The position numbers and the translations under genes are program-made. A stretch of DNA of 56,930 bases from an uncultured virus (IMG/VR IMGVR_UViG_3300042453_005981) (Duplodnaviria > Heunggongvirae > Uroviricota > Caudoviricetes): IMG/VR virus record IMGVR_UViG_3300042453_005981, one strand, 5' to 3'. This document shows, one piece after another, positions 3,370-56,429 of this stretch. The notes beneath the pieces were generated by a model that saw only the letters and a list, made by a program, of their open reading frames with translations, did not search any database and was not told the DNA's origin. Within the stretch, counting starts at the first letter, position 1, and each line of letters starts with the position of its first letter.

Positions 3370-3999
3370 TTAATAAAACCCATTAACTATAATTGAAGGT
3401 GAGTCATCACAAGAACACACTGGAGGATAAACAGCATAAATCTTTTTATCACTCCTCATGATTACACCATCCGCTGTATTCATTTTTTTAACTTGCGATT
3501 CATAAAGATCACAAGCTATATTAGACGTTCTGATAACATAAGCTGAAGTTCCAGCTCTTGTATATTTATCAGTGTACGGACTTGCTAAATGCGGAGTAGT
3601 GTACAAATCACAATCAGCTGTGAACAATGCCAAAATATCATAATCAGAATTTAAAGCAATTTCTAAATTTGATAATGTATTAAAAACAGAGTCGTCCTCT
3701 AAAATCAAACAATTACTTAAATTTTCATTAGCAATTATTTGATAAATCAACATGTGTGCCAAAGCACAAGCAACTTGACCATCACTTAATGGATCAAGCA
3801 AAGGAATATCATTAGGTATACTTGGTAGATTATGTACGGCTAAGCCATCTTTAGAAACACAATTCAAACCTTGCATTACAAATTGACACAATCTATAATT
3901 TAAACCTTCCCATCTTTCATTAAATGCTTGAAATCTTTGAGACTCAGGGTGAGCAATTACAAATACGTTTTCAAAATAATTATTGATTATATGATTCAT
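3370..3999 (-). CDS. Glycosyltransferase, GT25-like
   Basis: GQVACALAH..CLILEDD..GTSAYVI..AD pattern. Confidence 0.7.
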   Translation of the reverse strand: MNHIINNYFENVFVIAHPESQRFQAFNERWEGLNYRLCQFVMQGLNCVSKDGLAVHNLPSIPNDIPLLDPLSDGQVACALAHMLIYQIIANENLSNCLILEDDSVFNTLSNLEIALNSDYDILALFTADCDLYTTPHLASPYTDKYTRAGTSAYVIRTSNIACDLYESQVKKMNTADGVIMRSDKKIYAVYPPVCSCDDSPSIIVNGFY

Positions 4000-4706
4000 T
4001 GTTCACCGAAGTAATTATTATAAAAGTTTTTTACCAAATTTAACGATTCTTTGCTCATTTCATTTAAAACATATTCTTTTTGTTTAAGAAATTTAACAGC
4101 AGAATGGGAATTCATAGTAAATTTATATTTACTCCTCACTCTTTTTGACCATTCAACATCTTCTGCCTCACCCCATATCAAATTTTCATTAAGCGGAAAT
4201 TCTTGCATTACATTTTTTTTTGCCACCCAATAAAACCCAGGAATGTACATAATTTTTGAAAACTCTTGATCATAAGGTAAGAGTTGTTCGGCATTTGGCA
4301 ACTGATAATCTTGATAATAAACCAACCAATCTATATTTCTTTTTCCATCGAGATTGTGTACACGGTTCATGCACACTTGAAAGTCATTACCAAACTTTAA
4401 AAATCCTTCATACCAGCCATTTTCTAAAACAATATAATCATGCATTAAAACTATATTTTCATATTTTGCGTTTTCTACAATCAAATTTTTTTTCTTTGTG
4501 ATCCATCCAGTTTTTTGTGTTTCGTCAAAATGAATATAATCATCATAGAGGTTTTCACATAACCAATCTTTGTTCAAATTATCATAGATATCTCCAATGA
4601 ATATTATTTGTTTATTTGGTATTTTCTGATTTTTAATTTGATTATAAATAATTGGATGTAAGTGTTTATTTTCTTTAGTCACACAAATTCCAAAAGTAAA
4701 ATCCAT
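3996..4706 (-). CDS. GT-A fold glycosyltransferase
   Basis: FTFGI N-terminus, WITKKKNLIV..IVLMHDY, WGEAEDVEWS; located in the glycan cluster. Confidence 0.6.
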   Translation of the reverse strand: MDFTFGICVTKENKHLHPIIYNQIKNQKIPNKQIIFIGDIYDNLNKDWLCENLYDDYIHFDETQKTGWITKKKNLIVENAKYENIVLMHDYIVLENGWYEGFLKFGNDFQVCMNRVHNLDGKRNIDWLVYYQDYQLPNAEQLLPYDQEFSKIMYIPGFYWVAKKNVMQEFPLNENLIWGEAEDVEWSKRVRSKYKFTMNSHSAVKFLKQKEYVLNEMSKESLNLVKNFYNNYFGEQ

Positions 4707-4726
4707 TTACATATTGTACAATTTAC

Positions 4727-5356
4727 ATGATGAGCGAATTCTACAGTCAATACGGTCAAGACCAATATATTTACGAAACTTTCTTCAAAAACAAAACGGA
4801 CGGAGTATTTGTAGATATAGGAGCTTATGATGGAATAAAACTTTCTAATAGTTACTTTTTTGAAAAACTAGGTTGGACAGGTTTTTGTTTTGAGCCAGTA
4901 GATGACGCTTTTCAAAAATTAATATCGAATAGATCTCACTCTAAATGCTTTAACTGTGCAATTGGACATGAAAATAAAAAAGTACAATTCTTGAAAGTAG
5001 TTGGAAACGCAGATATGCTCAGTGGCGTATTAGATTATTATGATGCAAATCATATGTTTAGAATAAACAAAGAAACTTATGAATCAAATGGAGAACAAAT
5101 TGGAATTGAAGTTGAAATGTTCACGCTTGATCATTTCCTTCCTATAAATTCTCCAATTGATTATTTGTCAATTGATACTGAAGGTGGTGAATCTAAAATA
5201 TTAAAAAATATTTTAGAAAATTTCAATCCAAAAATCATTTCTGTAGAAGTGAATTATGAAGCAGATTCAAAGAAACTTTTTGAAGTTCTTGACAAACAAT
5301 ATGAGGTAGTTAAAAATTTAGGATGCGATCTTATTTTAAAGGATAAAAAATGGTAG
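4727..5356 (+). CDS. FkbM family methyltransferase
   Basis: SQYGQD..FVDIGAYDG..SNS..FEP..IDYLSIDTEGGE. Confidence 0.85.
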   Translation: MMSEFYSQYGQDQYIYETFFKNKTDGVFVDIGAYDGIKLSNSYFFEKLGWTGFCFEPVDDAFQKLISNRSHSKCFNCAIGHENKKVQFLKVVGNADMLSGVLDYYDANHMFRINKETYESNGEQIGIEVEMFTLDHFLPINSPIDYLSIDTEGGESKILKNILENFNPKIISVEVNYEADSKKLFEVLDKQYEVVKNLGCDLILKDKKW

Positions 5357-6156
5357 TTACATATATAGAAGGCGGATTAGGCAACATGTTATTTCAACTT
5401 TGCTTCAGCTATGCTAAGGCAAAAGAAAATAACACGACATTTCATACATTGAATTATAGAGAAAATCTTGATATTATCAAGGATAAACATAAAGCTGATA
5501 TTGAATCTTATGAAAAAACGATTCTCAGAAATTTCAGTATTTCTCCTCCTCCACTGCTGTATCAAGCACAAATTCAACATTTTTGCCCTTTTAATTTTGA
5601 AGAAATTCCTTATGAGCCAGATTGTTACAATTTGTATAAAGGGTATTTTCAATCAGAAAAGTATTTTGAAAAAAGCCAAGAAGATTTAGCACAAATTTTT
5701 CAACCAACCGAAGAAATCATTGACCACATGAAAGAAAAATACCCTTTTCTTTTTACTTTAGATTGTGTGGCTTTGCACATTAGACGAGGAGATTATTTGC
5801 AATTACCAAATCATCATCCAATTGTTCCCACCGATCATTATCATAAAGCATTAAAGAAACTTGGTGATTTTGAAAAAATCTTAGTGTTTACAAATGATAT
5901 GGATTGGTGCTACAAGAATTTTGTAGAATCGCGAGCTATTTTCATTGAAGAGTCAGATTGGATGAGTTTATATCTTATGAGCTTTTGCACTAAGCATGTT
6001 ATTGCTAATTCATCTTTTTCTTGGTGGGGTGCAAAATTAGCTGAGATGTTTTTCCCAGAAAAAAACATCGAAGTAGTTGCTCCTCCAGTGTGGTTTGGAC
6101 CTGCTGTTGATGGCGATGAAAAAGATTTAGTTCCATCAAGATGGATGAAAGTGTAA
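5350..6156 (+). CDS. Alpha-1,2-fucosyltransferase-like glycosyltransferase (GT11)
   Basis: GGLGNMLFQ, GYFQSEKYF, HIRRGDY, IANSSFSWWGA. Confidence 0.9.
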   Translation: MVVTYIEGGLGNMLFQLCFSYAKAKENNTTFHTLNYRENLDIIKDKHKADIESYEKTILRNFSISPPPLLYQAQIQHFCPFNFEEIPYEPDCYNLYKGYFQSEKYFEKSQEDLAQIFQPTEEIIDHMKEKYPFLFTLDCVALHIRRGDYLQLPNHHPIVPTDHYHKALKKLGDFEKILVFTNDMDWCYKNFVESRAIFIEESDWMSLYLMSFCTKHVIANSSFSWWGAKLAEMFFPEKNIEVVAPPVWFGPAVDGDEKDLVPSRWMKV

Positions 6157-6800
6157 TGACTAAATTAGATTTGTTTAATAACACACATGTAATATCTTTA
6201 GCACATAGATTGGATAGAAGAAGTGTCATAGCTAAGCAATTTGAGTTATATCAAATTCCTTATTCTTTTTTTGATGCTATCAATGGACATGAATTAGATT
6301 ATAATGGTCCGTTGTTAAAAGGCGAGGAGGGTGTAAGATTATCACATATTGAGTTATTAAACAAATCAATCAAAAACAATGAAAAATCACTTTTTATTTT
6401 TGAAGATGATGTTGAGTTTTCAGAAAGCTTTAACGAAGATTTACACAGAGCTTTAAATGTAGTTCCTGATAATTTTGATATGTTATATTTGGGGGCTTCA
6501 CATCATCTAAAGCCAGAATTAGTAAAAGATAACTTATATAAAATTTCACATTCTTACACCGCACATGCACTTTGTATAAAAAACAACCTTTTTGCACCAC
6601 TCAGAGACACAATCTCAAACAATAAAAATTTACCAGTGGATGTAATTTATGCATTAGTTCAACCGCAAGTAAATGCATTTGCTATTTATCCACATCTTGC
6701 ATGGCAATTCAACAGTTATTCAGACATACAAAACAAATTTGTTGATTATGAATTCCTTAAAAAAGAATTTGTTAGATTTGAAAATCAAACTATTCTTTGA
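6156..6800 (+). CDS. Glycosyltransferase GT25
   Basis: VISL..RLDRR..FFDAING..LSH..IFEDDV..DMLYLG. Confidence 0.8.
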   Translation: MTKLDLFNNTHVISLAHRLDRRSVIAKQFELYQIPYSFFDAINGHELDYNGPLLKGEEGVRLSHIELLNKSIKNNEKSLFIFEDDVEFSESFNEDLHRALNVVPDNFDMLYLGASHHLKPELVKDNLYKISHSYTAHALCIKNNLFAPLRDTISNNKNLPVDVIYALVQPQVNAFAIYPHLAWQFNSYSDIQNKFVDYEFLKKEFVRFENQTIL

Positions 6801-10961: not shown

Positions 10962-11345
10962 ATGAATGTTAAAAAAGTGAAGTGGTTTACTGAAGAATTA
11001 GTAAAATCTAATCCAGATTGTGTATTTATTTTTGGTGACAATCTTTTAAAAGTGGGTAAAGGTGGTCAAGCTATAATACGTGACCATTTCAACGCTTATG
11101 GAATTCCAACAAAAAAGCACCCTTCAATGTCACAAAATTCATTTTTTTATGATAGTGAGTATGATGATAATTGCCAAATTATTTTATCTGCAATAGATAA
11201 TATCCCAAAGAATTTTTCACAGATTGTGTTCCCTATAGATGGACTGGGGACTGGACTTGCAAAACTTAATGTTACAGCTCCAAAAACATATAAATTTCTG
11301 ATTGATACAATAAATAATAGATTCGGAGATATATATGAATACTGA
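10962..11345 (+). CDS. Conserved phage protein, possibly macrodomain-like
   Basis: VFIFGDN..GKGGQA..AYGIPTK..FP.DGLGTGLA pattern; fold assignment is an inference. Confidence 0.5.
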   Translation: MNVKKVKWFTEELVKSNPDCVFIFGDNLLKVGKGGQAIIRDHFNAYGIPTKKHPSMSQNSFFYDSEYDDNCQIILSAIDNIPKNFSQIVFPIDGLGTGLAKLNVTAPKTYKFLIDTINNRFGDIYEY

Positions 11346-12134: not shown

Positions 12135-14597
12135 CTCGTCATATTTTTTACCTTGTTCAAGTTCTGGCAAAATATCTGAAAATTCACTTGAATTAATTAC
12201 ATCATACATCGCTTGTTCTTCTATTCCTCTAAGTTCTTGAGGCATATCACCTTGTGTTTTTAAATTATCATCTGTAGTTGGAGTGGGCACTCTTGGAAAC
12301 AAATTTTCCGTATCTTCTGAATCAATAATTGTATCTGAAACTGGCATGTCATTTGCTAAGTTTCCTATTTCATCATCAATTAATTTTGTTGCTTCTGCTG
12401 ATTCACTATCAGTATTTTCATCAAGTATATCTGCAATTCTTGAAAGTCGCACGATGTTTTTTAGAATATTTGCTTTTGTGATGTTGTACATTAATGTTTT
12501 ATTCTCCAATAAATCAAAAGAACCTGTTTTTAAATTTTTACTCAAGTTAAAAGAAACCACTGTGTTTTCACAAAAAGTGAGTAGTTCTAATTCTTTATCA
12601 TCTTTATTTTTGATATCATTGCACCACTGAATTATTTTTTCTAAATCATTATCTGATAATCTTAGTTGCTTGATACAATTTTTTAATTCGTTAATCTTTT
12701 GAAATTTAACTTTGAATGAAGGAGTACTTTGTCTCATTTTGTTTATTTCTTCTTTGAGAGAGCTTAGTTCTTGTTCATTTTCATTCAATGAATTGAGTTT
12801 AAATCTTATGTTTTTTTCTTGTTCAATTATAATTCTTTGCAGTTCTTGATTATAAATTGCATAATTTGATTCTCCAAGTACTGTTCTAATCAAATTAAGA
12901 TATTTTGATTTCATTTCCTTTGGAGATAAATCAAAATAAAAATTTCTCAACATAGATTTTATTTGATTTTTTTGATCTTTTATTGCTGGAAATGTTTTAG
13001 AAATTTTATCAATTACACTATCGTCAATCATCCAAGGTTTAGTTATTTTAATTGATTCTTCTAATATTTTTCTAGAAATTGCTGCATCCAGTTCTTTTTC
13101 TGTCGCAAGTATGAATGAAAGTGCACTAGATTTTATTTTTATTTCAGCATTGTTAGGATTATTGATGTTTAAAAAATTGGATAAAAATTGTTTTTGTTCA
13201 TCAGTTTGATTACATGATTTATACCAAGTGATTAATCTTCCCAAAGGGGTATCACGTTGTGGCGCTCTGTTTACCGTAAAAAGGATATTCTTTTTTGTTA
13301 ATTCCTTTTGAATCATTTTTATAATTTCTTCTGGATTGTCGGTTTTTGGCTCAGTAAAATGTATTATGTTACAATTAATTGTTTTTGCGAAATTATCTTC
13401 TGCATTTACTTTGACTTTGTGTTTAAAATCATATTGAGCAACTTTAAATTCATTTTTACTTAATGATTTATATTCATCAATGTTTGGGTTTTCAGATCTT
13501 TGTTGCAAAAAAGAATCAAATTTTCTTCGATCACTTTCACTTAAGGTGTATCCGAAATATTCACCAACAAGCATTATTTCCGTTTCAATTTCAGGAATTT
13601 CATTTTGTTTTATTTCATTCAAATCGCTTTTTAACACATCGCAAACCACAATGAAGTCAATTAAAAAGTATTCATAAATTGATTCTTCTGGTGATGGAAT
13701 TTTCATTTTTGAGGGAATATATCTTATATTAAAAACTTCTTTTAAAGTAGATAAAACTTTTTTTTCTTTGAGTGATGAATATGTAAATTTAAATTTTTCT
13801 GGAAATTCTTCTACAAATAATTTATTTTCTTTTAATGGTTGAATTCTTTCTTTCAAAAGTTTCAAATCTTCACCATATAAATCACACAAATATGCATAAA
13901 ATTTTTCTTCATTTCTATCTGATTTATTATAGGCTGTATTTAGTTTTTGGAGTATTTTTGTATTATCATCTACCATAGAGCGATAGATTTGTTCAGGTGC
14001 TTCTTCAGACCAAAAATCAAAACCCAAGTCATTTAATTGTCTTTTAAAAGTTTCTTTTCCAAATTCAGTGTCAATTGTTTTTATTCGAGACATGTTTGTT
14101 TCTGAACTTCTTCCCAGCATCTCATTTAATTTATTTAGAACTTCAGATTTTTCCACTGACTTCATGTCTAATTTTTTTTCAAGATCTTCTCTGTTATATT
14201 TCACTGATAATTTTGCTAAAATTTCTTCAGGTAATTGACCATTAATCAAAAATTTGTTCCACCATTGATCAGATTTATATTTAAAAACATTTTTTGACAT
14301 TGTGCCAGCTAAATCTTTAATCTCGTCATCAGTGTAATTTTCTATGCCAGGTGTTTTATTTATTTTTTCTTTGACTTTTTCTTCTATTATTTTATTTCTT
14401 TCGAATCTTAAAAAATTTTGAATTATACTTAAATCAATATTGTTAATCAAATCATAAATAAAATTTTGTGTTATTGTAACTTTGTGTTCAATTATTTCTT
14501 TAAAAATTTCTTCTGTGATTACAGTAGCCCAATATTGTTTTTGAGCTTCGGTTAATTTTGTAGCTGCAAACAAAAGTTTATTTTTTATATCTAACAC
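12093..14597 (-). CDS. Large hypothetical protein (834 aa), candidate virion-internal protein
   Basis: Long charged ORF with GTG start; C-terminal RLSRIADILDE module resembles the N-termini of the 21862 and 27494 proteins. Confidence 0.6.
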   Translation of the reverse strand: MLDIKNKLLFAATKLTEAQKQYWATVITEEIFKEIIEHKVTITQNFIYDLINNIDLSIIQNFLRFERNKIIEEKVKEKINKTPGIENYTDDEIKDLAGTMSKNVFKYKSDQWWNKFLINGQLPEEILAKLSVKYNREDLEKKLDMKSVEKSEVLNKLNEMLGRSSETNMSRIKTIDTEFGKETFKRQLNDLGFDFWSEEAPEQIYRSMVDDNTKILQKLNTAYNKSDRNEEKFYAYLCDLYGEDLKLLKERIQPLKENKLFVEEFPEKFKFTYSSLKEKKVLSTLKEVFNIRYIPSKMKIPSPEESIYEYFLIDFIVVCDVLKSDLNEIKQNEIPEIETEIMLVGEYFGYTLSESDRRKFDSFLQQRSENPNIDEYKSLSKNEFKVAQYDFKHKVKVNAEDNFAKTINCNIIHFTEPKTDNPEEIIKMIQKELTKKNILFTVNRAPQRDTPLGRLITWYKSCNQTDEQKQFLSNFLNINNPNNAEIKIKSSALSFILATEKELDAAISRKILEESIKITKPWMIDDSVIDKISKTFPAIKDQKNQIKSMLRNFYFDLSPKEMKSKYLNLIRTVLGESNYAIYNQELQRIIIEQEKNIRFKLNSLNENEQELSSLKEEINKMRQSTPSFKVKFQKINELKNCIKQLRLSDNDLEKIIQWCNDIKNKDDKELELLTFCENTVVSFNLSKNLKTGSFDLLENKTLMYNITKANILKNIVRLSRIADILDENTDSESAEATKLIDDEIGNLANDMPVSDTIIDSEDTENLFPRVPTPTTDDNLKTQGDMPQELRGIEEQAMYDVINSSEFSDILPELEQGKKYDELKSIIFDKVNEKL

Positions 14598-14646
14598 AAT
14601 CTTATTTTAAAAGAAATTTAATCAAAAACCTACCGTATATATAATA

Positions 14647-15321
14647 ATGATTATAAGCTGTTCGTACAAAAAAAGAGTGGGCAAAGATACATTTTGCCGA
14701 ATTGTTAAAGAACTTTATCCTGATAAGAAGGTGGAAAGAGTAGCTTTCGCTGATGAGCTCAAAAAAGAATTAGACACAATCTTACTTATACCTAATGGCT
14801 TATCAAGAAATATGTTTGAGGATGACAATGTAAAAGAAATTGCCAGACCTTTACTACAAGGATGGGGCACAATTCGTAGAGAGTTTTGTGATAAGAATTA
14901 TTGGGTAAAACTGGCTTTTTGGAGAATGCAAGACCCAGACACAATCTACATTATCACTGACGCAAGATATTTAAATGAAATCGAATTTATCAACTCTCAA
15001 GGTGGGCACACTGTTCATATTAAAAGGGATTTACACGGATATAAGGCGTGGCTCAAAAGTCTTTCACATACTAAGTATTCTTGGGCTTCACACATTCTGC
15101 TCAGACCGTTTTTGATTGTGTTTTATCAGATTGTGTCTAGAAATAAAAAGTTTTTGAGCAAATCTGCAGACCCATCATCTTCTCATTCTTCAGAAACTGA
15201 ATTAGACAATTATCATCATTTGTTTAAATACACAATCGAGAATAATGGAACAGAAGCTGAGTTCAAAGAAAAAATTAAAATAGTTGTAGAAGATATATTT
15301 AAGCAGGAAAAAAAAATTTAA
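14647..15321 (+). CDS. Deoxynucleoside monophosphate kinase (T4 gp1-like) with an internal insertion
   Basis: VGKDT P-loop variant, AFADELK, RPLLQGWG..R, IITDARYLNE, HSSETELD, IENNGT. Confidence 0.8.
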   Translation: MIISCSYKKRVGKDTFCRIVKELYPDKKVERVAFADELKKELDTILLIPNGLSRNMFEDDNVKEIARPLLQGWGTIRREFCDKNYWVKLAFWRMQDPDTIYIITDARYLNEIEFINSQGGHTVHIKRDLHGYKAWLKSLSHTKYSWASHILLRPFLIVFYQIVSRNKKFLSKSADPSSSHSSETELDNYHHLFKYTIENNGTEAEFKEKIKIVVEDIFKQEKKI

Positions 15322-15338
15322 ATACCTAAAAACAGATT

Positions 15339-45773: not shown

Positions 45774-45821
45774 TATTTATATTTTACATCTAAAACACAA
45801 TCTCACCTTTTTTAAATAAAA

Positions 45822-45866: not shown

Positions 45867-47732
45867 TTAATCAACTACTTCAGCGTCCACAACATTAGGA
45901 TCTATCACTTCTTCATTAGACCCTTGAACATTTTGGTACAATACTTCTGAAAGTTTATGTGAAACTTGCAGTAGGTTGTCTTTAGCTGTTTGAATTTGAT
46001 TTTTGTCATTTGTTTTTAAAGCTTCTTTAGTTTTTTCTAAAGCTTCTTGAACATCATCAATCAAGTTTTGCTCTGCTTTATCTTTCGACATTTCAATCGT
46101 GGTTTCTATACTAGAGCACAAAGTTTCAGTCTCATTCTTCAAGAGAATAAACTCTTTTGCTTCTTTATCTGCTTCAGCATATTCTTCAGCCTCTTTGATC
46201 ATTCGATCAATTTCATCTTTTTCCAAGTTCGAAGATTGTGTGATTGTGATACTTTGCTCTTTGCCAGTTCCAAGATCTTTTGCTTTCACACTTAAAATAC
46301 CATTGGCATCTAAAGAAAACTCCACTTCGATTTGTGGGATTCTTGCTGGCGCAGGAGCAATCCCCGAAAGATTGAACATACCCAAGCTTTTGTTGTCTTT
46401 GGCAATAGGTCTTTCGCCTTGTAAGATATGAATAGTAACCTCAGTCTGATTATTAACAGCAGTGGTATATACACTCTTTTTCTGTGTCGGAATAGTCGTG
46501 TTTTTTTCAATAAGCACATCAACCATTCCTCCATTTACTTCAACACCCAAACTCAAAGGAGTGACATCTAAAAGAATAATGTCCTTGACATCTCCTGCCA
46601 AAATGCCTCCTTGAACTGCCGCTCCAAGAGCCACTGCCTCATCAGGATTCACACCTTTAGATGGCTCTAAGCCTGTAATTTCCTTAATCAAACTTTGAAC
46701 ACAAGGGATTCGTGAACTACCACCAACAAGAATTACTTCATTAATCTTAGATTTGTCCACACCTTCCTTGAGAGCATTTAGCAATGGTTTTTTGATTCGA
46801 TCCAAGAGGGGTTTCACCATAGATTCAAAATTAGCCTTAGTCAATTCTAAATCAACATGCAATGGATTTCCATCCACTGCTGTAATGTAAGGAAGATTTA
46901 TTGATGTGGTTGCCTGTGAAGAAAGTTCAATTTTAGCTTTTTCTGAAGCTTCTTTCACTCTTTGCATTGCCGCTGAATCTTTGCTGATATCTACACCAGT
47001 AGATTTTTTTGTTTCAGAAACAATCCATTCCGATACTTTATTATCAAAATCATCTCCACCTAAATGACTATCTCCTGAAGTGCTCAAAACCTCAAATGTT
47101 CCATCACCAATATCGAGAATAGAAACATCAAAAGTTCCTCCACCAAGGTCGAAAACCAAAATATAACCTTCTTTATCCTTGCTTACACCATAAGCCAAAG
47201 CCGCAGCTGTTGGCTCATTGATGATTCTCACTACTTCAAGCCCAGCAATTTCTCCTGCATTTTTTGTAGCTTGTCTTTGTGAGTCATCAAAGTAAGCAGG
47301 GACAGTAATCACTGCTTTACTAACAGTGGTTCCTAAGTAACTTTCAGCATCCACTTTAATTTTTTGAAGAACTGCCGCTGAAATTTCTTCTGGTGTAAAA
47401 TCTTTACCCACCGCAGGAATTTCAATTACAGCTAAGCCCTTTTTGTTTTTCTTAACCTTATAACTAACTTTACCCACTTCATTAGAAATCTCATCATACT
47501 TGTGTCCCATAAAACGCTTGACAGATGAGATTGTGTTTTTGTGATTAGTGACAGCACTCCGTTTTGCAGAAATGCCAACAATCCGCTCACCATCTTTTTT
47601 CCACGATACTACGGAAGGAATAGTTCTATTTCCTTCAGATGACGAAATCACTTTAGCTTCACCAGCTTCCATGATAGCAACGCACGAATTAGTCGTGCCA
47701 AGGTCGATTCCTAATATGTATTCTTTTGCCAT
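45867..47732 (-). CDS. dnaK: Molecular chaperone DnaK (Hsp70)
   Basis: GIDLGTTNSC, TVPAYF, INEPTAAA, DLGGGTFDVS, LVGGSSRIP, NPDEAVA; start MAKEYILG. Confidence 0.97.
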   Translation of the reverse strand: MAKEYILGIDLGTTNSCVAIMEAGEAKVISSSEGNRTIPSVVSWKKDGERIVGISAKRSAVTNHKNTISSVKRFMGHKYDEISNEVGKVSYKVKKNKKGLAVIEIPAVGKDFTPEEISAAVLQKIKVDAESYLGTTVSKAVITVPAYFDDSQRQATKNAGEIAGLEVVRIINEPTAAALAYGVSKDKEGYILVFDLGGGTFDVSILDIGDGTFEVLSTSGDSHLGGDDFDNKVSEWIVSETKKSTGVDISKDSAAMQRVKEASEKAKIELSSQATTSINLPYITAVDGNPLHVDLELTKANFESMVKPLLDRIKKPLLNALKEGVDKSKINEVILVGGSSRIPCVQSLIKEITGLEPSKGVNPDEAVALGAAVQGGILAGDVKDIILLDVTPLSLGVEVNGGMVDVLIEKNTTIPTQKKSVYTTAVNNQTEVTIHILQGERPIAKDNKSLGMFNLSGIAPAPARIPQIEVEFSLDANGILSVKAKDLGTGKEQSITITQSSNLEKDEIDRMIKEAEEYAEADKEAKEFILLKNETETLCSSIETTIEMSKDKAEQNLIDDVQEALEKTKEALKTNDKNQIQTAKDNLLQVSHKLSEVLYQNVQGSNEEVIDPNVVDAEVVD

Positions 47733-47842: not shown

Positions 47843-47871
47843 TTCCAGGTTTAACATTTTTGATTTATAAT
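47843..47871 (+). promoter_or_regulatory. Conserved sigma70-type promoter (copy 3) heading the small-ORF tract
   Basis: TTCCAG-GTTTAACATTTTTGATT-TATAAT. Confidence 0.7.
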
Positions 47872-47875
47872 AGTC

Positions 47876-48115
47876 ATGAATAATTCGTATAATTCTTATA
47901 AAGAGTACTCAGATGATTTTATCACAAATCATCCTGAGCTTTTCGACAGAGTGATGCTTAAAGTAAATGCTACAATTAAGCTAAGTTTTGAAGCACACAG
48001 TGATTCCACTGAAGAAGATTTGTTAAAAATGGCGCGACAATTCATCGCAGATGGTGGCGAGATTGTGTGTGAGATGGATTTTACAAATCCTAATGATGAG
48101 GTTTGGGAGAAATAA
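47876..48115 (+). CDS. Hypothetical protein
   Basis: ATG 4 nt after the promoter -10 box. Confidence 0.6.
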   Translation: MNNSYNSYKEYSDDFITNHPELFDRVMLKVNATIKLSFEAHSDSTEEDLLKMARQFIADGGEIVCEMDFTNPNDEVWEK

Positions 48116-48518: not shown

Positions 48519-48859
48519 AAAATACATTTTTAATTGTAACAATATTAGCTTTTAATCTAGTTGGATGTGGCAATTTGAAGCAATCAAGTTCAAAGACCAC
48601 TGTCTTACCAAGTGGAATTAAACTTAAAATTGAAAATAAACCTAACAATTCAATAACTGAACCATATCTTACATTCGCTACCTATTACATACCCGCAGAC
48701 CAAAAATTTGTTCACTTCAGAAAATATGAGTTTTCTTATGAGGGTCAAATGACAACCAGAATGCGGAGACAGGATGATGCTTATGATGTCTATACAATTG
48801 CTTCATGTGGTCCTAAAATAACTATTGTAGAGGAAAAGCCCATTGGAGAAATAAAATGA
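48515..48859 (+). CDS. Putative lipoprotein (paralog A)
   Basis: Lipobox LVGC; paralog of 49612-50004. Confidence 0.7.
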   Translation: MKNTFLIVTILAFNLVGCGNLKQSSSKTTVLPSGIKLKIENKPNNSITEPYLTFATYYIPADQKFVHFRKYEFSYEGQMTTRMRRQDDAYDVYTIASCGPKITIVEEKPIGEIK

Positions 48860-49164
48860 CACAATCTGAATTTTTAGAAGAAAAACAAAAAAAGAAAAAA
48901 AAATTTGAGAAACTTTTTTTGGAGGAATTTAATTCTGAATTGGCAAAATACTTCAGAACAGCATGCCCTAGAATTTATGTTGACACAAGTTATTATTTCA
49001 GTAAAAAAGAAGCGCTTGCAATTATTGCGTCTGAGCATCCTGATTTAAAATTAAGATTGCGATTTTATCGTCAAGTTGATAACATGTACACACGACATAG
49101 TTTACAGTATAAATTTACTCCAAAAAGAAAATTCACAATCTTTGGGCGTGAGGTTTGGATTTAA
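48856..49164 (+). CDS. Hypothetical protein
   Basis: GGAG SD, ATGA overlap. Confidence 0.55.
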   Translation: MTQSEFLEEKQKKKKKFEKLFLEEFNSELAKYFRTACPRIYVDTSYYFSKKEALAIIASEHPDLKLRLRFYRQVDNMYTRHSLQYKFTPKRKFTIFGREVWI

Positions 49165-49181
49165 TTTTGTATAAATAGTTT

Positions 49182-49611: not shown

Positions 49612-50004
49612 ATGAAAAATACCTTTTTAATTATAGCAACACTGGCTTTTACTTTGGTTGGGTGTGAAAATACAAGGCAATCAAGTTCAAAAACCATTGA
49701 CTTACCCACGGGAATCAAACTTAAACTTGAAAAGATACCCAACAAGTGTAATTCATATGATCCATATGTTATAGTTGCTACGTATTACATTCCTTCAGAC
49801 CAAAAATTTGTTAATTTCAAACAATTTGAGCTTTCTTGGAGAGGCGAAAAATATTATGAGGATTATGAGGGTCAAATCACAACCAGAAAACGAACAAAGG
49901 ATGATGGCTATGATACCTATACAATTGCTACAGGAGCTCAATTTGAAGCTGCATGCAGTCCTGCGATAACGATAATAGAAGAAAAGCCTTTTGGAGAAAA
50001 ATGA
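49612..50004 (+). CDS. Putative lipoprotein (paralog B)
   Basis: Lipobox LVGC; shares QSSSKT, ATYYIP.DQKFV, YEGQ.TTR and EEKP.GE with paralog A. Confidence 0.7.
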   Translation: MKNTFLIIATLAFTLVGCENTRQSSSKTIDLPTGIKLKLEKIPNKCNSYDPYVIVATYYIPSDQKFVNFKQFELSWRGEKYYEDYEGQITTRKRTKDDGYDTYTIATGAQFEAACSPAITIIEEKPFGEK

Positions 50005-50064
50005 CACAATCTGAATTATTTATTACTTAAAGACCGTATATGGAAAGAGGAATGAGAACAAATC

Positions 50065-50957: not shown

Positions 50958-51271
50958 AAAAAGCAAGTCGTGCACCAATATATACGGCGTGTGTATATCC
51001 AGATTTGGCTGAAATTTGTCGCGAGGCTGGCTATGCATTAGCAGTGCATGGTTCACTTGCCAGAGATTTTGACCTTGTTGCTATACCTTGGGTAGAAAAT
51101 GTTATTATCCCAGAAATAGTTGTGCAGGAAATAACAAAAAAATTCTCTGTCAAACAAATAGGCGAGCCAGAGTGTAAATTACATGGGAGATTGTGTTATA
51201 CCTTAGCATGGATGGGTGAAGCGTTTATAGATTTTTCGTTCATGCCTGTGCAAACACAAGAATTAAAATGA
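50954..51271 (+). CDS. Minimal nucleotidyltransferase-like phage protein
   Basis: GYALAVHGSLARDFDLVAIPW (GS..DxD). Confidence 0.55.
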   Translation: MKKASRAPIYTACVYPDLAEICREAGYALAVHGSLARDFDLVAIPWVENVIIPEIVVQEITKKFSVKQIGEPECKLHGRLCYTLAWMGEAFIDFSFMPVQTQELK

Positions 51272-53235: not shown

Positions 53236-53497
53236 AATCATTATTGAAAATATAAGTTCGTTGCCTGATGACGAGGCAGTAAGATTAGTACAACGAGTAA
53301 TGTCTGACGGTTTTCTTAGCAAAGAAACAATACAGGGAGAAAAAAATATCCCAAAGTATTGCCACGTCACTTCTTTCAAGGAAATGTCATCTTGTGTCAG
53401 ACATATTGTGGAAGCAAGATCACGCAAAACAAAAACTTCTGCCTATTCATTCAGAGTTTACACTTCTTATATAGATTGTGTGGAGGAGGAATCATAA
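53228..53497 (+). CDS. Hypothetical protein (paralog of 51551-51820)
   Basis: High similarity to the 51551 ORF. Confidence 0.65.
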   Translation: MSRIIIENISSLPDDEAVRLVQRVMSDGFLSKETIQGEKNIPKYCHVTSFKEMSSCVRHIVEARSRKTKTSAYSFRVYTSYIDCVEEES

Positions 53498-53531
53498 TAT
53501 GAAATTGCCAATAGGTTTTGATGAGCCAATT

Positions 53532-54857
53532 GTGAACTACCTCACCCATAAAGGGAGAGGCTTCCTGTTTCATAGTCGTTAGCAACCTAACAATTCCACA
53601 GGCGTTGATTCGGCTTGTTCCAAGCCTATAAATCTCATTAAATTTTGACGATTGAATGCCATTTCTTTAATGTTGATAGCAGCATTAATATCACGATCAT
53701 GTGTAACTCCACAAGGACATTGCCATACACGATCTTTTAATGTTAATTCTCGATTGACATAGCCACAGATAGAACAAGTTTTTGAACTAGGTTCAAATCT
53801 TCCAATATCTAATAACCATTTCCCATTCCATTCACATTTATATTCTAAAAATGAACGAAACATTCCCCATCCTACATCGGATATGGATTTTGCTAATCTA
53901 TGATTTCTGATCATTCCTTGTGTGTTTAAATCTTCTATACATAACACATCAATTTGGTTCTCATTAACGAGTTCATGTGAGATTTTATGAAGGAAATCTT
54001 TTCTTTGATTAGAAACTTTTTCATGTAACTTAGCGAGTTTTACTCGCTGTTTGTTTTGATTATTACTACCTTTATTCATTCTTGAAAATCGACGTTGCAT
54101 TCGTTTTAATTTTTCTTCTGACTTTTTAAGGAAACGTGGATTATTAATTTTGTCACCTTCCGACGTAATAACAAAATGTGTCAATCCAAGATCAACACCT
54201 ATAGCTCTGTCTTTGTTGAGTTCTGGTTTAGCAGGAATATTTTCATCAATTTCAACTAATATAGAAGCATAATATTTTCCAGTAGATGATTTACTAATTG
54301 TAATTGATTTAACTTTTCCTTCAAAATGACGATGCAAAACAGCTTTAATATTTTTAGCTTTAGGAATTGAAATTGTATTTAATTCAAAATCCACAACACA
54401 CGATTGAGGATTCATAAATGAAGACTTACTGAATTTCTTGCTTTTAAATTTTGGAAATCCTTTCTTTTCTTTAAAGAATCTACTAAATGCAGAATCCAAA
54501 TTAGCAGTTACAGCTTGTAACGCTTGTGAATTAACATTTGTCAGCCAATGGTGTTCTTCTTTAAGTTCTTTAAGTTTTGCATCCATTTCAAATTTAGTTA
54601 ATTTCTGTTTTCCATTCACATACATTTCTGTTTTCAGTTCAAGAAAATAATTATATACAAATCTCGCACAACCAAAAGAACTTTCAATTAATTGAATTTG
54701 CTCTTGATTAGGTTTGATTCTATACTTATATGCCTTAAACATATAAATAATTTCTGCTTATTTTCTAGTCACACCTATTTTTCGACTAGAAATTTTATAA
54801 TATTTTTTAATAATTCAGCAATTCATCCCCACTGACGAGCAGATGGGGCTTTCTTGC
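53532..54857 (-). mobile_element. IS200/IS605-family (IS1341-like, TnpB-only) element
   Basis: Minus-strand left end GCAAGAAAGCCCCATCTG..CAGTGGGGATGAATTGC and right end GGAAGCCTCTCCCTTTATGGGTGAGGTAGTTCAC. Confidence 0.85.
53579..54742 (-). CDS. tnpB: RNA-guided endonuclease TnpB
   Basis: KAYKYRI, GVDLG, IEDL, CSIC..CPC, HDRDINAAINI; catalytic triad intact. Confidence 0.95.
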   Translation of the reverse strand: MFKAYKYRIKPNQEQIQLIESSFGCARFVYNYFLELKTEMYVNGKQKLTKFEMDAKLKELKEEHHWLTNVNSQALQAVTANLDSAFSRFFKEKKGFPKFKSKKFSKSSFMNPQSCVVDFELNTISIPKAKNIKAVLHRHFEGKVKSITISKSSTGKYYASILVEIDENIPAKPELNKDRAIGVDLGLTHFVITSEGDKINNPRFLKKSEEKLKRMQRRFSRMNKGSNNQNKQRVKLAKLHEKVSNQRKDFLHKISHELVNENQIDVLCIEDLNTQGMIRNHRLAKSISDVGWGMFRSFLEYKCEWNGKWLLDIGRFEPSSKTCSICGYVNRELTLKDRVWQCPCGVTHDRDINAAINIKEMAFNRQNLMRFIGLEQAESTPVELLGC

Positions 54858-55077
54858 AGGTATATTGTAAATGATGATGGCTCTGTTGAGTACGATTGGA
54901 TGTTTGACAAAAATGCATTTTCGTTGACCATATATCCAGATGGCAAAGTAGGATATGCTTACTTGATTGGAAATATTTCTGATTGCGGTGTTTCTTATTT
55001 GGAAGATGGCAATTTGCCTGATTTTATTACAAACAAGATTCAAGAACTTTCCACACAATCTGAGCGTATAAAAATTA

Positions 55078-55248: not shown

Positions 55249-55702
55249 TAAACTCGAAACCAAAACAATACTTTGTGCCGCGTTTCCTGGCACTGGCAAA
55301 ACATTTATCTGTAATAATTCAAAACTAAAAGCAATTGAAGTGGAATTTTGGCAGTATGAAAGCCAAAAACAATACATTCAAGATATTAAAGCATTGATAG
55401 GTGAAGTAGATTTTGTATTCCTATCCACTGAAATAGATGGTTTACAGCTTTTGCATAATGAAGGTCTTGAAATTTTCCTTGTTTATCCTCAAAAGAATTT
55501 GAGGAATGAATATTTAGACAGATATATTGAAAGAGATAACCCATATGATTTCATAGGCACGATGATGAAATTTTGGGACACTACTATTGAAAAACTTCAA
55601 GAGCAAAAGTATTGTAAACACTTCGTTTTAGGAAAAAATCAATATTTGAGCGATATTCTTCATTTACTCAGTAAACCCTCCACACAATCTGAGCGTATAT
55701 AA
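55241..55702 (+). CDS. P-loop NTPase or nucleotide kinase-like phage protein
   Basis: ILCAAFPGTGKT Walker A; LVYP..EYL.RY..R; probable GTG start. Confidence 0.7.
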   Translation: MISKLETKTILCAAFPGTGKTFICNNSKLKAIEVEFWQYESQKQYIQDIKALIGEVDFVFLSTEIDGLQLLHNEGLEIFLVYPQKNLRNEYLDRYIERDNPYDFIGTMMKFWDTTIEKLQEQKYCKHFVLGKNQYLSDILHLLSKPSTQSERI

Positions 55703-55706
55703 GACT

Positions 55707-56042
55707 ATGGGTATGTTCACAAGGATAAAAGTAAATAACAACAAGTTTATTCAAATATATTGTGGTGGTGATATGTTGAAAACTTACGAAATTGGAGATT
55801 CCGTTCCCTATTGTTTATATGTTGAAAAAACTCGTTTTGAATGTTTTGCTGATGGTGCTTATAAGGGTTTTTGCGAAGATAAAAATGATGACAATCATTA
55901 TTGGGTGATAATTAAAAATTCAAAAGTTGAAACGGTGCTTTGCCAAAACAATATAGTTTTCGAGCGTGACGAGTATAAAAGTTTATATGAAGATACTTTG
56001 GATTTTTTGATTAAAAAATATAATTTACCACAAGTTCTGTAG
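55707..56042 (+). CDS. Hypothetical protein
   Basis: ATG supplied by cassette repeat 2. Confidence 0.6.
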   Translation: MGMFTRIKVNNNKFIQIYCGGDMLKTYEIGDSVPYCLYVEKTRFECFADGAYKGFCEDKNDDNHYWVIIKNSKVETVLCQNNIVFERDEYKSLYEDTLDFLIKKYNLPQVL

Positions 56043-56081
56043 TTTTCGAACCTTCCACACAATCTGAGCGTATAAAATAAT

Positions 56082-56336
56082 ATGCATTTGTGGTTCACTG
56101 CTTATAATCCAAAAACAAAAGAAGCATGCAATGTGTTTGTGGTTGGAAGTGCAATAGATGGTGTGTACGAGGAAGATTTGTTGAGAGCTTTTTTGACAAA
56201 AAACGTTGAGCAAGATTTAGTGCTTAGCAATAGTGACGAGCTTTTAGACCGTGTGTACGATGAAGGCGGGGTTCATCTAAACAGACTATCAATAACTGAA
56301 AAAGAAAAATATATTAAATCTGTATACAGTAATTAA
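56082..56336 (+). CDS. Hypothetical protein
   Basis: ATG supplied by cassette repeat 3. Confidence 0.6.
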   Translation: MHLWFTAYNPKTKEACNVFVVGSAIDGVYEEDLLRAFLTKNVEQDLVLSNSDELLDRVYDEGGVHLNRLSITEKEKYIKSVYSN

Positions 56337-56429
56337 TGTTAACAATTTCGTGGCTAGGAGGTGAAAATATAATTTACCACAAGCTCTGTAGTTTGCAACT
56401 TTCCACACAATCTGAGCGTATAAAATAAT

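Follow-up and report, generated by a model that had tools for sequence, protein, structure and literature searches.

A dispersed 9-mer in the genome of an uncultured caudoviricete virus as a possible protein-binding site

Why should one non-palindromic 9-mer, ACACAATCT, recur throughout a stretch of 56,930 nucleotides (the window) in the 347-kb record of an uncultured virus (IMG/VR IMGVR_UViG_3300042453_005981), and what might read it? A first-pass annotation had listed 45 copies, and all 45 coordinates proved correct; one further copy on the + strand, at 31468, had been overlooked, and the window holds 46 exact copies, 25 on + and 21 on -. Within ORFs of at least 70 aa lie 39 copies, 20 in sense and 19 in antisense orientation; the other 7 fall between genes or at their edges.

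Copies of the word and their abundance

Copies of ACACAATCT in the window (position, strand, context, peptide):
3886..3894, +, antisense in ORF 3370-3999(-), RLC
4351..4359, -, sense in ORF 3996-4706(-), xHNL
5760..5768, -, antisense in glycosyltransferase ORF 5350-6156(+), xDCV
6607..6615, +, sense in ORF 6141-6800(+), DTIS
11015..11023, -, antisense in ORF 10962-11345(+), xDCV
11221..11229, -, antisense in ORF 10962-11345(+), QIVF
14594..14602, +, start edge, overlapping the first codons of ORF 12093-14597(-)
14774..14782, +, sense in ORF 14647-15321(+), DTIL
14939..14947, +, sense in ORF 14647-15321(+), DTIY
15128..15136, -, antisense in ORF 14647-15321(+), QIVS
15334..15342, -, spanning the called start of ORF 15339-18164(+)
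19113..19121, +, sense in STN-domain ORF 18762-19331(+), TQS
19230..19238, +, sense in ORF 18762-19331(+), TQS
21352..21360, +, antisense in dTDP-sugar epimerase ORF 21275-21811(-), QIVS
24581..24589, -, antisense in adenylosuccinate-synthetase-like ORF 23647-24606(+), QIVW
25191..25199, +, sense in ThyX ORF 24625-25461(+), xHNL
25495..25503, -, antisense in ORF 25439-26299(+), EDCV
25527..25535, +, sense in ORF 25439-26299(+), HTIC
26832..26840, -, antisense in ORF 26305-27237(+), TDCV
28301..28309, +, sense in Y-family polymerase ORF 28021-29244(+), NTIF
28872..28880, +, sense in ORF 28021-29244(+), THNL
29124..29132, -, antisense in ORF 28021-29244(+), SDCV
31468..31476, +, sense in ORF 31252-31950(+), TQS
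31820..31828, -, antisense in ORF 31252-31950(+), QIVC
32819..32827, +, sense in ECF-like sigma factor ORF 32550-33137(+), KHNL
33953..33961, -, within the tmRNA gene (33684-34067, +)
38913..38921, -, antisense in HAD-like ORF 38698-39219(+), PDCV
39000..39008, -, antisense in ORF 38698-39219(+), EDCV
39052..39060, +, sense in ORF 38698-39219(+), TQS
39113..39121, -, antisense in ORF 38698-39219(+), EIVY
40895..40903, +, sense in ORF 40520-40924(+), TQS
42068..42076, -, antisense in ORF 41200-42174(+), EIVS
42164..42172, +, over the stop of ORF 41200-42174(+), with an early-type promoter 15 nt downstream
42256..42264, +, 16 nt inside ORF 42240-43652(+), YTIS
45795..45803, +, intergenic between ORF 45333-45773(-) and the DnaK gene
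46233..46241, -, sense in DnaK gene 45867-47747(-), TQS
47528..47536, -, sense in DnaK gene 45867-47747(-), NTIS
48060..48068, -, 9 nt inside ORF 48051-48518(+), RLC
48859..48867, +, immediately 3' of the ATG of ORF 48856-49164(+), MTQS
50004..50012, +, immediately 3' of an ATG (MTQS), at the end of ORF 49573-50004
51188..51196, -, antisense in ORF 50873-51271(+), RLC
53473..53481, -, antisense in ORF 53177-53497(+), IDCV
55053..55070, +, 18-mer ACACAATCTGAGCGTATA headed by ACACAATCT, of a second promoter-like class, then TATAAA and ATG
55682..55699, +, 18-mer ACACAATCTGAGCGTATA, second cassette
56057..56074, +, 18-mer ACACAATCTGAGCGTATA, third cassette
56405..56422, +, 18-mer ACACAATCTGAGCGTATA, fourth cassette

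The strong over-representation claimed at first is real and exceeds that claim: Markov models of order 1, 3 and 5 predict 0.8, 1.2 and 6.1 copies in the window (z = 51, 40 and 16), and 100 dinucleotide shuffles gave a mean of 0.79 and a maximum of 4. Across the record ACACAATCT is the most frequent 9-mer, with 336 exact copies against 9.0 expected; the remaining high-scoring 9-mers overlap it, or have at most five copies and are part of the 55-56 kb cassette repeat, to which the word does belong, the copies at 55053, 55682, 56057 and 56405 sharing ACACAATCTGAGCGTATA. One-mismatch copies, described as many, are mildly in excess (335 for the 27 neighbours pooled, against 185 expected, over the whole record), whereas the excess of exact copies is far sharper. 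The flanks of the 46 window copies show no relatedness among them, and in 326 dispersed copies from three genomes only G at +1 (164/326) and A at +2 (171/326) carry information; the word is thus ACACAATCT, extended weakly to ACACAATCT-G-A. Analysis of spacing and strand shows that the copies are single, Poisson-spaced and on either strand, with no polarity.

Selection on DNA rather than on peptides

The word sits where the sequence tolerates it: in each of the six frames, at codon positions where the choice is synonymous or conservative (DCV, QIV, TQS, HNL and DTI, as annotated at first, and RLC in addition), and also in promoter spacers, Shine-Dalgarno-to-ATG spacers, first codons, intergenic DNA and a tmRNA gene, within which the copy at 33953 was correctly placed. 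Two copies had been described as crossing GTG starts; those at 14594 and 15334 do overlap first ORF codons, and the GTG calls are of limited reliability because the boundaries come from a crude ORF caller. Peptide sites compatible with the word are spelled with it in 182 of 230 cases in the record (21.1 expected from codon usage), 28 of 35 in the related genome G001 (2.8 expected) and 56 of 89 in G002 (5.4 expected), as against 1/76 and 3/98 in the word-less family-level relatives G003 and G005; compatible peptides are themselves 2-3 times commoner within the clade. When all genes of at least 100 aa in the record were shuffled, exchange of synonymous codons gave 27 copies and shuffling of codon order gave 5, against 189 observed; neither these controls nor the counts of other 9-mers refute the over-representation, which were the refuting tests proposed at first. 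ACACAATCT is a DNA-level signal and not a peptide motif, as had been proposed: the clade bends codon choice and protein sequence to write it about once per kilobase on both strands. This implies that some factor reads the phage DNA genome-wide.

The slots that the word fills are neutral ones, among them N-termini and the spacers of promoters. Among 74 early-type promoters, the spacer contains forward ACACAATCT in 27 and the reversed word, displaced by 2 nt, in 3; the remaining 44 have other sequences there. A reversed copy abuts the -35 element in 11. Early-type promoters with word-less spacers, and mobile genes free of the word, lie in the window as follows:
32491..32519, +, promoter TTCCAGGTTTAAC..TATAAT preceding the sigma-factor gene, record position 320341
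42187..42215, +, promoter, record position 330037
47843..47871, +, promoter, record position 335693
29324..30541, +, TnpB (IS605 OrfB) gene
53579..54742, -, TnpB gene
37574..38695, +, LAGLIDADG gene

The first-pass annotation had reported no copies in the IS elements or the LAGLIDADG gene, cautioning that these stretches are too short for significance; the two TnpB genes and the LAGLIDADG gene do lack the word. Together with the third TnpB gene of the record they span 4,695 nt, in which 3.7 copies would be expected and none occurs (P = 0.025). Clade-specific genes carry 1.01 copies per kb and core genes 0.39. Long-resident accessory genes are richer in the word, conserved core genes poorer, and mobile genes lack it.

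Distribution among related phages

ACACAATCT is the top 9-mer only in the record (G000), G001 (39 copies in 62 kb) and G002 (65 copies in 166 kb); G003, G004 and G005, of 316-379 kb, have 1, 3 and 3 copies. It is common to genus-level relatives and 24 related lake-metagenome contigs, and missing from relatives at ~52% polymerase identity. Of 31 metagenome loci, which were selected by a pattern that itself contains the word, 24 belong to the clade, and their density of the word ranges from 0.33 to 8.4 copies per kb. When orthologous sites are aligned, 9/21, 10/37 and 8/21 match exactly, compared with 11%, 5% and 9% for background 9-mers, while 10, 18 and 9 of them differ by at least three positions; copies are thus retained above background, yet turn over. 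On the reading that we prefer, selection maintains the word in a single clade of huge lake phages, of about the rank of a genus.

A putative reader and comparison with known systems

One conserved intergenic place, just upstream of the early-gene region, holds a super-site, a tandem array of 8 to 13 head-to-tail copies phased at 10-11 bp. In the record (33194-33636) its 13 sites form 46-bp units, within which a 10-bp sub-repeat runs, and at the homologous place a divergent clade member has an 11-bp array of 7.8 copies. This period could simply be that of a repeat unit generated by slippage; alternatively, it would place sites one helical turn apart for cooperative binding.

The reading that we consider best, though we hold it with less than even confidence, is that ACACAATCT is a putative site on duplex DNA for a sequence-specific protein, encoded by the phage, whose binding marks the genome as self. 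Such a reader would bind single sites as a monomer and the 8 to 13 copies of the super-site cooperatively. Mycobacteriophage repressors set a precedent, since they bind as monomers to numerous asymmetric sites (PMC9283540). The super-site would serve as a nucleation point, and possibly also as an origin or centromere-like site. If the benefit of binding rises with site number, the reader would most likely distinguish phage from host DNA through coating, compaction, silencing or protection. This 'more is better' benefit is a conjecture, because we know of no binding protein that requires some 300 sites saturating codon choice.

Restriction to one clade fits the self-mark first suggested; the functions then named (coating, partitioning, packaging, modification, recombination) stand as suggestions. 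The modification-site version is unsupported, because no DNA methyltransferase of three main families was found; nor did a partition motor or ParB come to light, a search for ParA-like, ParB and tubulin genes having found none, which leaves the centromere idea without a motor. A Pfam scan of 381 ORF products yielded, as DNA-binding domain matches noticed, only sigma factors and the TnpB HTH, and a reader candidate is absent among them; the reader could instead be encoded by the host. Two basic proteins encoded beside the super-site, which have no function in PHROG and matched no fold in the PDB, are leads only.

Rival readings make the word a Chi-like recombination signal, a set of primase sites or stoperator-like control sites, or have a translocating enzyme or primase read it in single-stranded rather than duplex DNA. 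As the first-pass annotation stated, Chi and KOPS are polarised, unlike ACACAATCT, and HIP1 is palindromic, which ACACAATCT is not; it behaves in the manner of a DNA uptake sequence or of a binding site scattered along the genome.

Abundance of the word and the genome that carries it

The window contains 46 exact copies of the word ACACAATCT, 25 on the plus strand and 21 on the minus strand, where dinucleotide shuffles predict 0.79. The first-pass annotation had listed 45 copies; all 45 coordinates are correct, but the list was incomplete, a copy at 31468 having been overlooked. The word is also by far the top 9-mer of the window in Markov models of order 1, 3 and 5 (z = 51, 40 and 16, respectively), and the next-ranked 9-mers either overlap it or are words of the 55-56 kb cassettes with at most five copies. 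Across the whole record the count rises to 336 (144 plus, 192 minus), the highest of all 9-mers; among unrelated words AAAACAAAA comes next with 92 copies, and z for the word is 109 under an order-3 Markov model. Each single-mismatch neighbour occurs 0-39 times, which indicates specificity at all nine positions, and the 27 one-mismatch neighbours together number 335 against 185 expected, compared with 336 against 9.0 expected for the exact word.

The window spans bases 287,851-344,780 of one virus record of 347,392 bp, which is 99% complete according to CheckV, is labelled 'provirus' in IMG/VR and has 89% of its length in open reading frames (ORFs) of at least 100 aa (standard code 11); gene coordinates come from a crude caller (longest ORFs, greedy choice), and start codons are approximate. 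A Pfam scan of 381 ORF products shows a huge tailed phage, with genes for giant structural proteins (as long as 4,138 aa) alongside those for a Mu-type portal, a tail tube and a Mu gp36-like protein; replication genes for Pol III alpha, beta clamp, clamp loader, DnaB and a DnaG primase in two genes; and recombination genes for RecA, RecJ, an SbcCD-like pair, RusA and a PD-(D/E)XK nuclease. Further genes are those of three ECF-like sigma factors, NusG, IF3, a tmRNA, chaperones and many sugar-modifying enzymes. An early-type promoter (window 32491-32519) lies immediately 5' of the sigma-70 family gene in the window. Two genes about 7 kb apart encode the split DnaG-type primase, one for a stand-alone CHC2 zinc-ribbon protein (173 aa, L006:11943-12461) and the other for a Toprim protein (241 aa, L007:2206-2928). 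Other genes of note are the following; L-handles denote loci or pieces, some of them of the record (for example L001 and L002) and others metagenome or IMG/VR contigs (for example L243 and L299).

Window 32550-33134: ECF-like sigma-70 family gene (Pfam)
L007:11474-12190: ECF-like sigma-70 family gene (Pfam)
L007:14049-14600: ECF-like sigma-70 family gene (Pfam)
Window 19753-20781: protein with type IV pilin N-methylation motif (Pfam)
L009:4098-5078: second protein with type IV pilin N-methylation motif (Pfam)
Window 18762-19328: STN-domain protein (Pfam)
L222:12209-13081, just past the record end in a related contig: secretin-N protein
Record 11127-11990 (L001): Mom-family protein (Pfam), a relative of the DNA-modifying Mom of phage Mu; the gene holds two word copies
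Record 39177-39518: small HNH endonuclease

The Mom-family protein and the small HNH endonuclease would be suited to a word that is a target of modification or nicking, either as an epigenetic self-mark or as the place of T5-like site-specific nicks, and a single non-palindromic word present on both strands is what type III or IIG enzymes or nickases recognize. This reading is nevertheless very improbable: a six-frame search of the record found no DNA methyltransferase of the N6/N4, C5 or D12 class, and being a modification target would be no reason for a word to be enriched. Sites of the restriction type are usually avoided.

A contig (L222:8166-15048) that is 99% identical to the last 3.2 kb of the record extends 6.9 kb beyond its end (347,392), encodes GatB, TyrRS, an LTXXQ protein, the secretin-N protein and DUF4379 proteins, and carries six further word copies. 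The record was probably cut short at this end, and because the extension encodes bacterial-looking genes and still carries the word, the 'provirus' label may reflect trimming of bacterial-looking phage genes; alternatively, the extension may be host DNA. Eighteen lake-water sequencing runs contain at least 95% of the sampled words of the window, all as contigs, and among the runs listed none is of RNA data holding the window sequence. In the four runs compared, the main contigs are identical to the window, with no reported difference within any word copy. Contigs of three runs join window position 42365 to 56300, skipping 13.9 kb and placing 31 other letters between; with only 22 letters on its shorter side, this junction may be a repeat artefact.

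Relatives and limits of the clade

A search of IMG/VR with Pol III alpha recovers two close relatives of the record (G000), namely G001 (62 kb, 83% identity) and G002 (166 kb, 82% identity), and about 18 relatives at 50-54% identity, including G003, G004 and G005. The word occurs 39, 65, 1, 3 and 3 times in G001 to G005, respectively (0-3 times for the reversed word as control), and is the top 9-mer in G000, G001 and G002 only. Of the two family-level genomes examined in full, G003 has no strongly enriched word and G005 has enriched words that are unrelated; no such word accompanies the same replication genes in relatives at about 52% identity. A second enriched word of G002 (ATGGAACA...) has no relevance here, being a tandem coding repeat. 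Between G000 and G001, 9 of 21 aligned orthologous sites are exact, as are 10 of 37 between G000 and G002 and 8 of 21 between G001 and G002; background 9-mers in these comparisons are identical in 11%, 5% and 9% of cases. In 10, 18 and 9 aligned cases, respectively, three or more positions are changed in the other genome. Because the exact share exceeds background while many sites differ at three or more positions, the sites are conserved above background yet turning over.

A homologue in G001 or G002, and none in G003 or G005, is found for 58 proteins of the record, too many, and from too incomplete fragments, to single out a reader. Genes that have a homologue in G003 or G005 carry the word at 0.39 per kb, and those lacking one at 1.01 per kb. 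No copy is found in the 4,695 nt of the three TnpB genes and the LAGLIDADG gene, where 3.7 are expected (P = 0.025). The word offers a marker both for clade members in metagenomes and, by its absence, for recently acquired genes. As a clue to the host, TnpB yielded 68 GTDB loci, mostly of methanogens, with a best identity of 60% and no enrichment of the word (nine copies in 987 kb of flanking sequence). Neither the G001 nor the G002 fragment contains a counterpart of the window, and window segment 36000-48000 has no megablast match in the phage collection.

An 18-mer scan of metagenomes, in a sample biased by a search pattern that itself contains the word, gave 31 loci, of which blastn or blastx assigns 24 to the clade, at word densities of 0.33-8.4 copies per kb; the remaining seven are unrelated single matches (three blastx-negative, four judged without blastx). 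A scan of IMG/VR for direct pairs, which is less biased, gave at least 116 loci, and among the matches listed 85 have a pair only and 31 have three or more copies. Twelve of these 31 were inspected: dispersed enrichment is found in contigs of G001 and G002 and in L322, a newly recognized member of the clade with 9 copies in 16.9 kb, and most of the other eight have their copies in tandem arrays or tight clusters. L299, a 27-kb IMG/VR contig of 0.28 G+C without protein homology to G000, has six dispersed copies in 19 kb, several in G-TQS-S contexts, which may be due to chance, to a peptide repeat or to an unrelated carrier of the word. In L257, a 5.9-kb IMG/VR contig with one weak protein match to G000, eight copies of AATCTTAAC, possibly a variant site, are interleaved with five of ACACAATCT beside a tRNA gene.

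The pilin-motif protein and the STN-domain protein of the window, and the secretin-N protein of the extension contig, are the kind of genes that an uptake sequence would call for, in which a pilin-type receptor reads the word and (infected) host cells preferentially take up and recombine DNA of the clade. ComP, the receptor for DUS, is described as a minor pilin, and the word also resembles DUS in its frequency of about one per kb, strand symmetry, location in genes and excess of exact over degenerate copies (for DUS, PMC3630211 gives about 1,900 copies per 2.2-2.3 Mb, rising to 2,742 when one mismatch is tolerated). However, the carrier is a virus rather than a competent cell, the pilin-like protein has a conserved counterpart in the word-less G003 (39% identity over 97% of the length), and inverted-pair terminators are absent, the sole recurrent pair deriving from paralogous promoters. 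We consider uptake highly improbable.

Selection at the DNA level and placement of copies

The flanks of the copies are unrelated to each other. When 326 dispersed copies from the three word-bearing genomes were pooled, excluding one gene family and two promoter classes, the only flanking preferences were G at +1 (164/326) and A at +2 (171/326). Genes of at least 100 aa in the record hold 189 copies (115 sense, 74 antisense), and this number falls to 27 when synonymous codons are shuffled within genes and to 5 when codon order is shuffled; codon-preserving shuffles thus remove 86-97% of the copies. All six reading frames are used. We also considered all protein sites compatible with the word (TQS, xHNL, xTIx, RLC, xIVx and xDCV): 182 of 230 such sites are written as the word in G000, where codon usage predicts 21, as are 28 of 35 in G001 and 56 of 89 in G002, in contrast to 1 of 76 in G003 (G+C 0.34, the same as G000) and 3 of 98 in G005 (G+C higher, 0.41). 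Across the word-bearing clade, the word therefore fills 63-80% of the positions that can encode it, and the compatible peptides are themselves two to three times commoner in word-bearing genomes than in relatives. Since both site usage and peptide frequency are raised, codon choice and protein sequence have both been bent toward the word.

These shuffles, the use of six frames and the encodable-site test bear out the first-pass annotation in its view of a signal at the level of DNA rather than a peptide motif; the enrichment outlasts codon-preserving shuffles and similar counts in many other 9-mers are not seen, so that neither of the two grounds named there for abandoning the idea holds. A word without function, whose counts stem from paralogous repeats, a favoured peptide or codon bias, could draw on the 64 of 336 copies in one family of tiny genes and the approximately 45 in paralogous promoters. 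We discard it as practically ruled out by the shuffles, the six frames, the encodable sites, the unrelated flanks of the 326 dispersed copies and the control given by word-less relatives of similar base composition.

The 64 copies just mentioned are the codons T-D-C-V at the start of approximately 59-64 paralogous genes at 14.4-32.7 kb of the record, and were set aside because they are not independent. This array of tiny genes (record 14,479-32,700; L001/L002) is a very large paralogous expansion: the genes are tandem, translationally coupled and 25-83 aa long, all start with MINTDCV followed by QVW-type four- or seven-residue repeats, end mostly in KVFR or WYD, and overlap the next ATG with their stop within a conserved 20-nt block. 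Between this array and the early region, outside the window, lies the densest cluster of the record, the super-site (record 33194-33636), with 13 sites of which 10 are exact and three have one mismatch; eight of these sites are paired at a distance of 10 bp within 3.7 repeats of a 46-bp unit, which has a 10-bp sub-repeat. L243/L229 represents a divergent member of the clade, with early proteins at 26-41% identity to their G000 counterparts; here an 11-bp head-to-tail array of 7.8 repeats occupies the homologous place, with about 25 further copies within 4 kb.

The copies tied to promoters, approximately 45 in number, belong mainly to the early-type promoter TTTTCCAGGTTTAAC-N-GATTATAAT, which occurs 74 times in the record, mostly at 34-68 kb, each time after a terminator and with an ATG 5-7 nt behind; because the ATG follows the -10 element so closely, early mRNAs are probably leaderless. 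The early region (record 34,000-68,200; L002-L004) comprises about 60 mini transcription units, each with a G+C-rich terminator and a near-identical promoter; a 30-mer of this promoter has no match in IMG/VR, and 72 of 77 early-region proteins have no homologue in G003 or G005. Among the 74 spacers between -35 and -10, 27 contain the word forward, three contain it reversed and shifted by 2 nt, and 44 have another sequence; a reversed copy abuts the -35 element in 11 of these promoters. A second promoter-like class, consisting of ACACAATCTGAGCGTATA followed by TATAAA-like letters and an ATG, yields the four cassette copies at window 55053-56422 and is also present in G002. Since promoters of the early-type class also function when the spacer differs or holds the word reversed, we interpret the promoter positions as places of tolerance into which the word has moved; they are not proof of a promoter function. 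An ECF sigma promoter element was considered and rejected, as there is no conserved partner 16-17 nt away.

Gene starts show a peak of copies at 0-20 nt upstream (41 against 7 expected), and Shine-Dalgarno-to-ATG spacers are also filled by the word, as are the letters directly after the ATG in five places of the record, two of them in the window. Outside large genes the word is three-fold denser (95 copies in 15% of the record). Large genes hold 177 copies, and for 151 of the 272 non-family copies the nearest gene start is over 100 nt away. Of the 46 copies in the window, 39 are in ORFs of at least 70 aa (20 sense, 19 antisense), and one copy lies within the tmRNA gene, as the first-pass annotation had noted.

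Such a distribution could in part be expected of a stoperator-like system, in which a phage regulator uses the word as operator of early promoters and as roadblock within transcription units, shutting off early genes or silencing the genome. Cluster A mycobacteriophages are described as having more than 20 asymmetric 13-bp repressor sites per genome, bound by monomers (PMC9283540, PMC6550527), and the density outside large genes, the peak upstream of starts, the word in 30 of 74 early-type spacers and beside -35 in 11, its place at the head of a second promoter-like class conserved in G002, and the 'provirus' label would all agree with it. However, stoperators need one orientation relative to transcription and occupy short intergenic gaps, whereas the copies described here are largely remote from starts and stand 105 sense to 72 antisense in large genes; 44 of 74 promoters of the same class have other spacers and three have the word reversed; a six-frame search of the record matched no tyrosine, serine or DDE integrase (Phage_integrase, Resolvase, rve); the word continues past the record end in a near-identical contig, so the 'provirus' label may be a trimming artefact; and regulation leaves the saturation of codon choice unexplained. 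Weakened by the orientation and location of the copies, a stoperator-like role is in our estimate improbable.

There is no polarity along the record, since both orientations are present in every 20-kb bin. The sense bias in genes (P = 0.016 for 105 against 72) is mild and could be explained by coding constraints; a NusG/RfaH ops-like signal was rejected on account of the weak strand bias relative to transcription. From 80 kb onward, copies follow a Poisson-like spacing, with a mean of 1.67 kb, a coefficient of variation of 1.1 and a largest gap of 9.9 kb where approximately 8.5 kb is expected. Copies seldom stand close together; close inverted pairs number nine in G000, seven of them being one 21-nt arrangement around the -35 element of paralogous promoters, and none in G001 and G002.

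Orientation bears most directly on a Chi-like reading, in which the word would be read on single-stranded DNA by a translocating helicase-nuclease (host RecBCD or AddAB, or an unrecognised phage enzyme) and would switch it from degradation to RecA loading, dense copies on both strands protecting and recombining the many DNA ends of the phage. Known Chi words are 5-8 nt long and G-rich, whereas the word is A/C-rich, 9-11 nt long and specific at all nine positions. The presence of RecA, RecJ, the SbcCD-like pair and RusA indicates that the phage lives by recombination, which would suit a Chi-like word, and saturation of codon choice would suit a signal of which more is better. Phages that pile up the Chi of their host until it is the commonest octamer, at a similar density, are described in PMC12315714, including phage LLS with 23 sites (one per 1.86 kb) and Pseudomonas phage MD8 with 32 sites of this most frequent octamer, and the one-orientation cluster at the super-site recalls the terminal clustering of Chi in both. 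However, Chi has a single orientation at 20 of 23 sites in LLS and 32 of 32 in MD8, and the Chi-rich phages have, according to PMC12315714, no recombination module of their own. In the record, orientation is unpolarised, although a permuted genome could account for this, a recombination module is present, and a six-frame search found no UvrD-type (RecB or AddA) helicase; family-level relatives have no counterpart word. Weakened by the absence of polarity and by the recombination genes that the phage itself carries, the Chi-like reading is in our view unlikely.

Spacing bears on a reading in which the word is the template site of the phage primase (the zinc-ribbon and Toprim genes) or of a helicase loader, so that lagging strands start every 2-3 kb per strand on phage DNA only and the array is the origin. 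Per strand, copies are about 2.1 kb apart overall and 3.3 kb apart outside the early region, and Okazaki fragments are of the same order of length. Both strands are used equally, the split DnaG genes adjoin those of DnaB and Pol III alpha, and the super-site resembles an iteron array. On the other hand, the replication module itself has the lowest word density (the largest gaps are at 95.6-104.2 kb and 109.4-119.3 kb), and relatives at about 52% identity have the same replication genes but no such word. DnaG-type primases recognize trinucleotides, and we know of none with a 9-mer site. A priming role, too, is improbable.

Two points are established: the word serves recognition, is specific to the clade and is subject to selection, or to a drive, in favour of high copy number as such; and the same word forms a conserved, phased tandem array.

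The putative reader and known systems

Two conserved basic proteins are encoded just downstream of the super-site, at record 34,643-35,104 and 35,982-36,389. The first (153 aa) has three homologues only. The second (135 aa; L002:18568-18972) combines a conserved globular N-terminal part with an AT-hook, KRGRPKK, at its C-terminus, and has 27 homologues at 37-99% identity; its AlphaFold model has a pLDDT of 77 and no PDB fold match at E 0.001 or better by Foldseek. Pfam detects no helix-turn-helix protein among 106 small ORFs, and PHROGs recognizes one HNH endonuclease among 28 early proteins and otherwise returns only 'unknown function'. To our knowledge, the word is unlike IHF, CRP or DnaA boxes. 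A non-coding stretch at record approximately 33,640-33,950 (L002:16226-16536), just downstream of the super-site, has its own promoter with the word in the spacer and a strong terminator, and its position and part of its sequence are kept in L243; Rfam returned only eight tRNAs for record 1-72.5 kb and no match for this stretch, which is a candidate phage small RNA.

Our tentative preference, held at somewhat less than even probability, is that the word is the duplex binding site of a phage-encoded protein: a putative monomer would bind the double-stranded word, nucleate at the super-site and thereby mark the whole phage genome as self. The reader may instead be encoded by the host. In either case it must matter greatly to the phage, because some 300 copies cost visible freedom in protein coding, and the super-site offers a ready bait for it. 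Uptake sequences, Chi and KOPS are precedents in that each of these genome-wide words exposed a DNA-reading machine. It is conceivable, though rather doubtful, that large microbial viruses commonly run a self-recognition code of their own, with a virus-encoded reader, a clade-specific word in every tolerant position and a tandem super-site as nucleation point or origin, by which viral DNA is told from that of the host. If so, several hundred kilobases could be spared during degradation of host DNA, compacted, segregated or primed, and word and reader would co-evolve and define 'species' of huge phages, as the DUS dialects do for Neisseria.

No description of such a word in a huge phage was found among open-access papers and bioRxiv, where the only genome-wide phage words found are host Chi, in small lambdoid phages, and repressor stoperators; a literal search of papers for the word gave, among the matches listed, apparent primer or construct sequences. 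Like the DUS of Neisseriaceae and the USS of Pasteurellaceae, as characterized in PMC3630211, the word is a non-palindromic commonest repeat in the range of 9-12 nt that occurs about once per kb on both strands and in several frames, with exact copies far exceeding degenerate ones, and is specific to a lineage. Unlike them, it is carried by a phage, forms no inverted-pair terminators and has relatives without any word (two family-level genomes in full) instead of 'dialects'. Like Chi in LLS and MD8 as described in PMC12315714, it is a short, asymmetric, commonest k-mer found once per 1-2 kb, attributable to selection rather than codon usage, with turnover and clustering. It differs in that those phages carry the 8-nt Chi of the host, in nearly one orientation toward one genome end, and do so without recombinases of their own, whereas here the word is of 9-11 nt and unpolarised and the phage has RecA, RecJ and SbcCD-like genes.

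Tandem-repeat centromeres and iterons, such as R1 parC, F sopC, tubC and the iterons of plasmids and phages, are accompanied by adaptor and motor genes. The super-site is like tandem centromeres and iteron origins in its head-to-tail arrangement, its phasing by 10-11 bp or in 46-bp units and its conserved intergenic place. The hundreds of single sites scattered over the genome are unlike them, and a six-frame search of the record found no ParA-like ATPase (AAA_31), ParB (ParB_N), tubulin or HUH Y1 transposase. A partition protein that binds many half-sites in the manner of a nucleoid protein is described in 10.1101/280743.

Like the stoperators of Cluster A, the word is asymmetric, has many copies and occurs both in promoters (30 of 74 spacers) and within transcription units (177 copies in large genes), and related phages of Cluster A are described as having related but distinct site motifs (PMC9283540, PMC6550527). 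Stoperators differ in being of 13 bp, in one orientation and intergenic, in temperate phages with a known repressor, whereas here most copies lie deep in genes in either orientation and the record has no integrase or parABS match in six frames. By its statistics, then, the word is closest to DUS and USS, by its carrier to the Chi-rich phages and by its likely biochemistry to the stoperators, and it departs from each in at least one defining feature.
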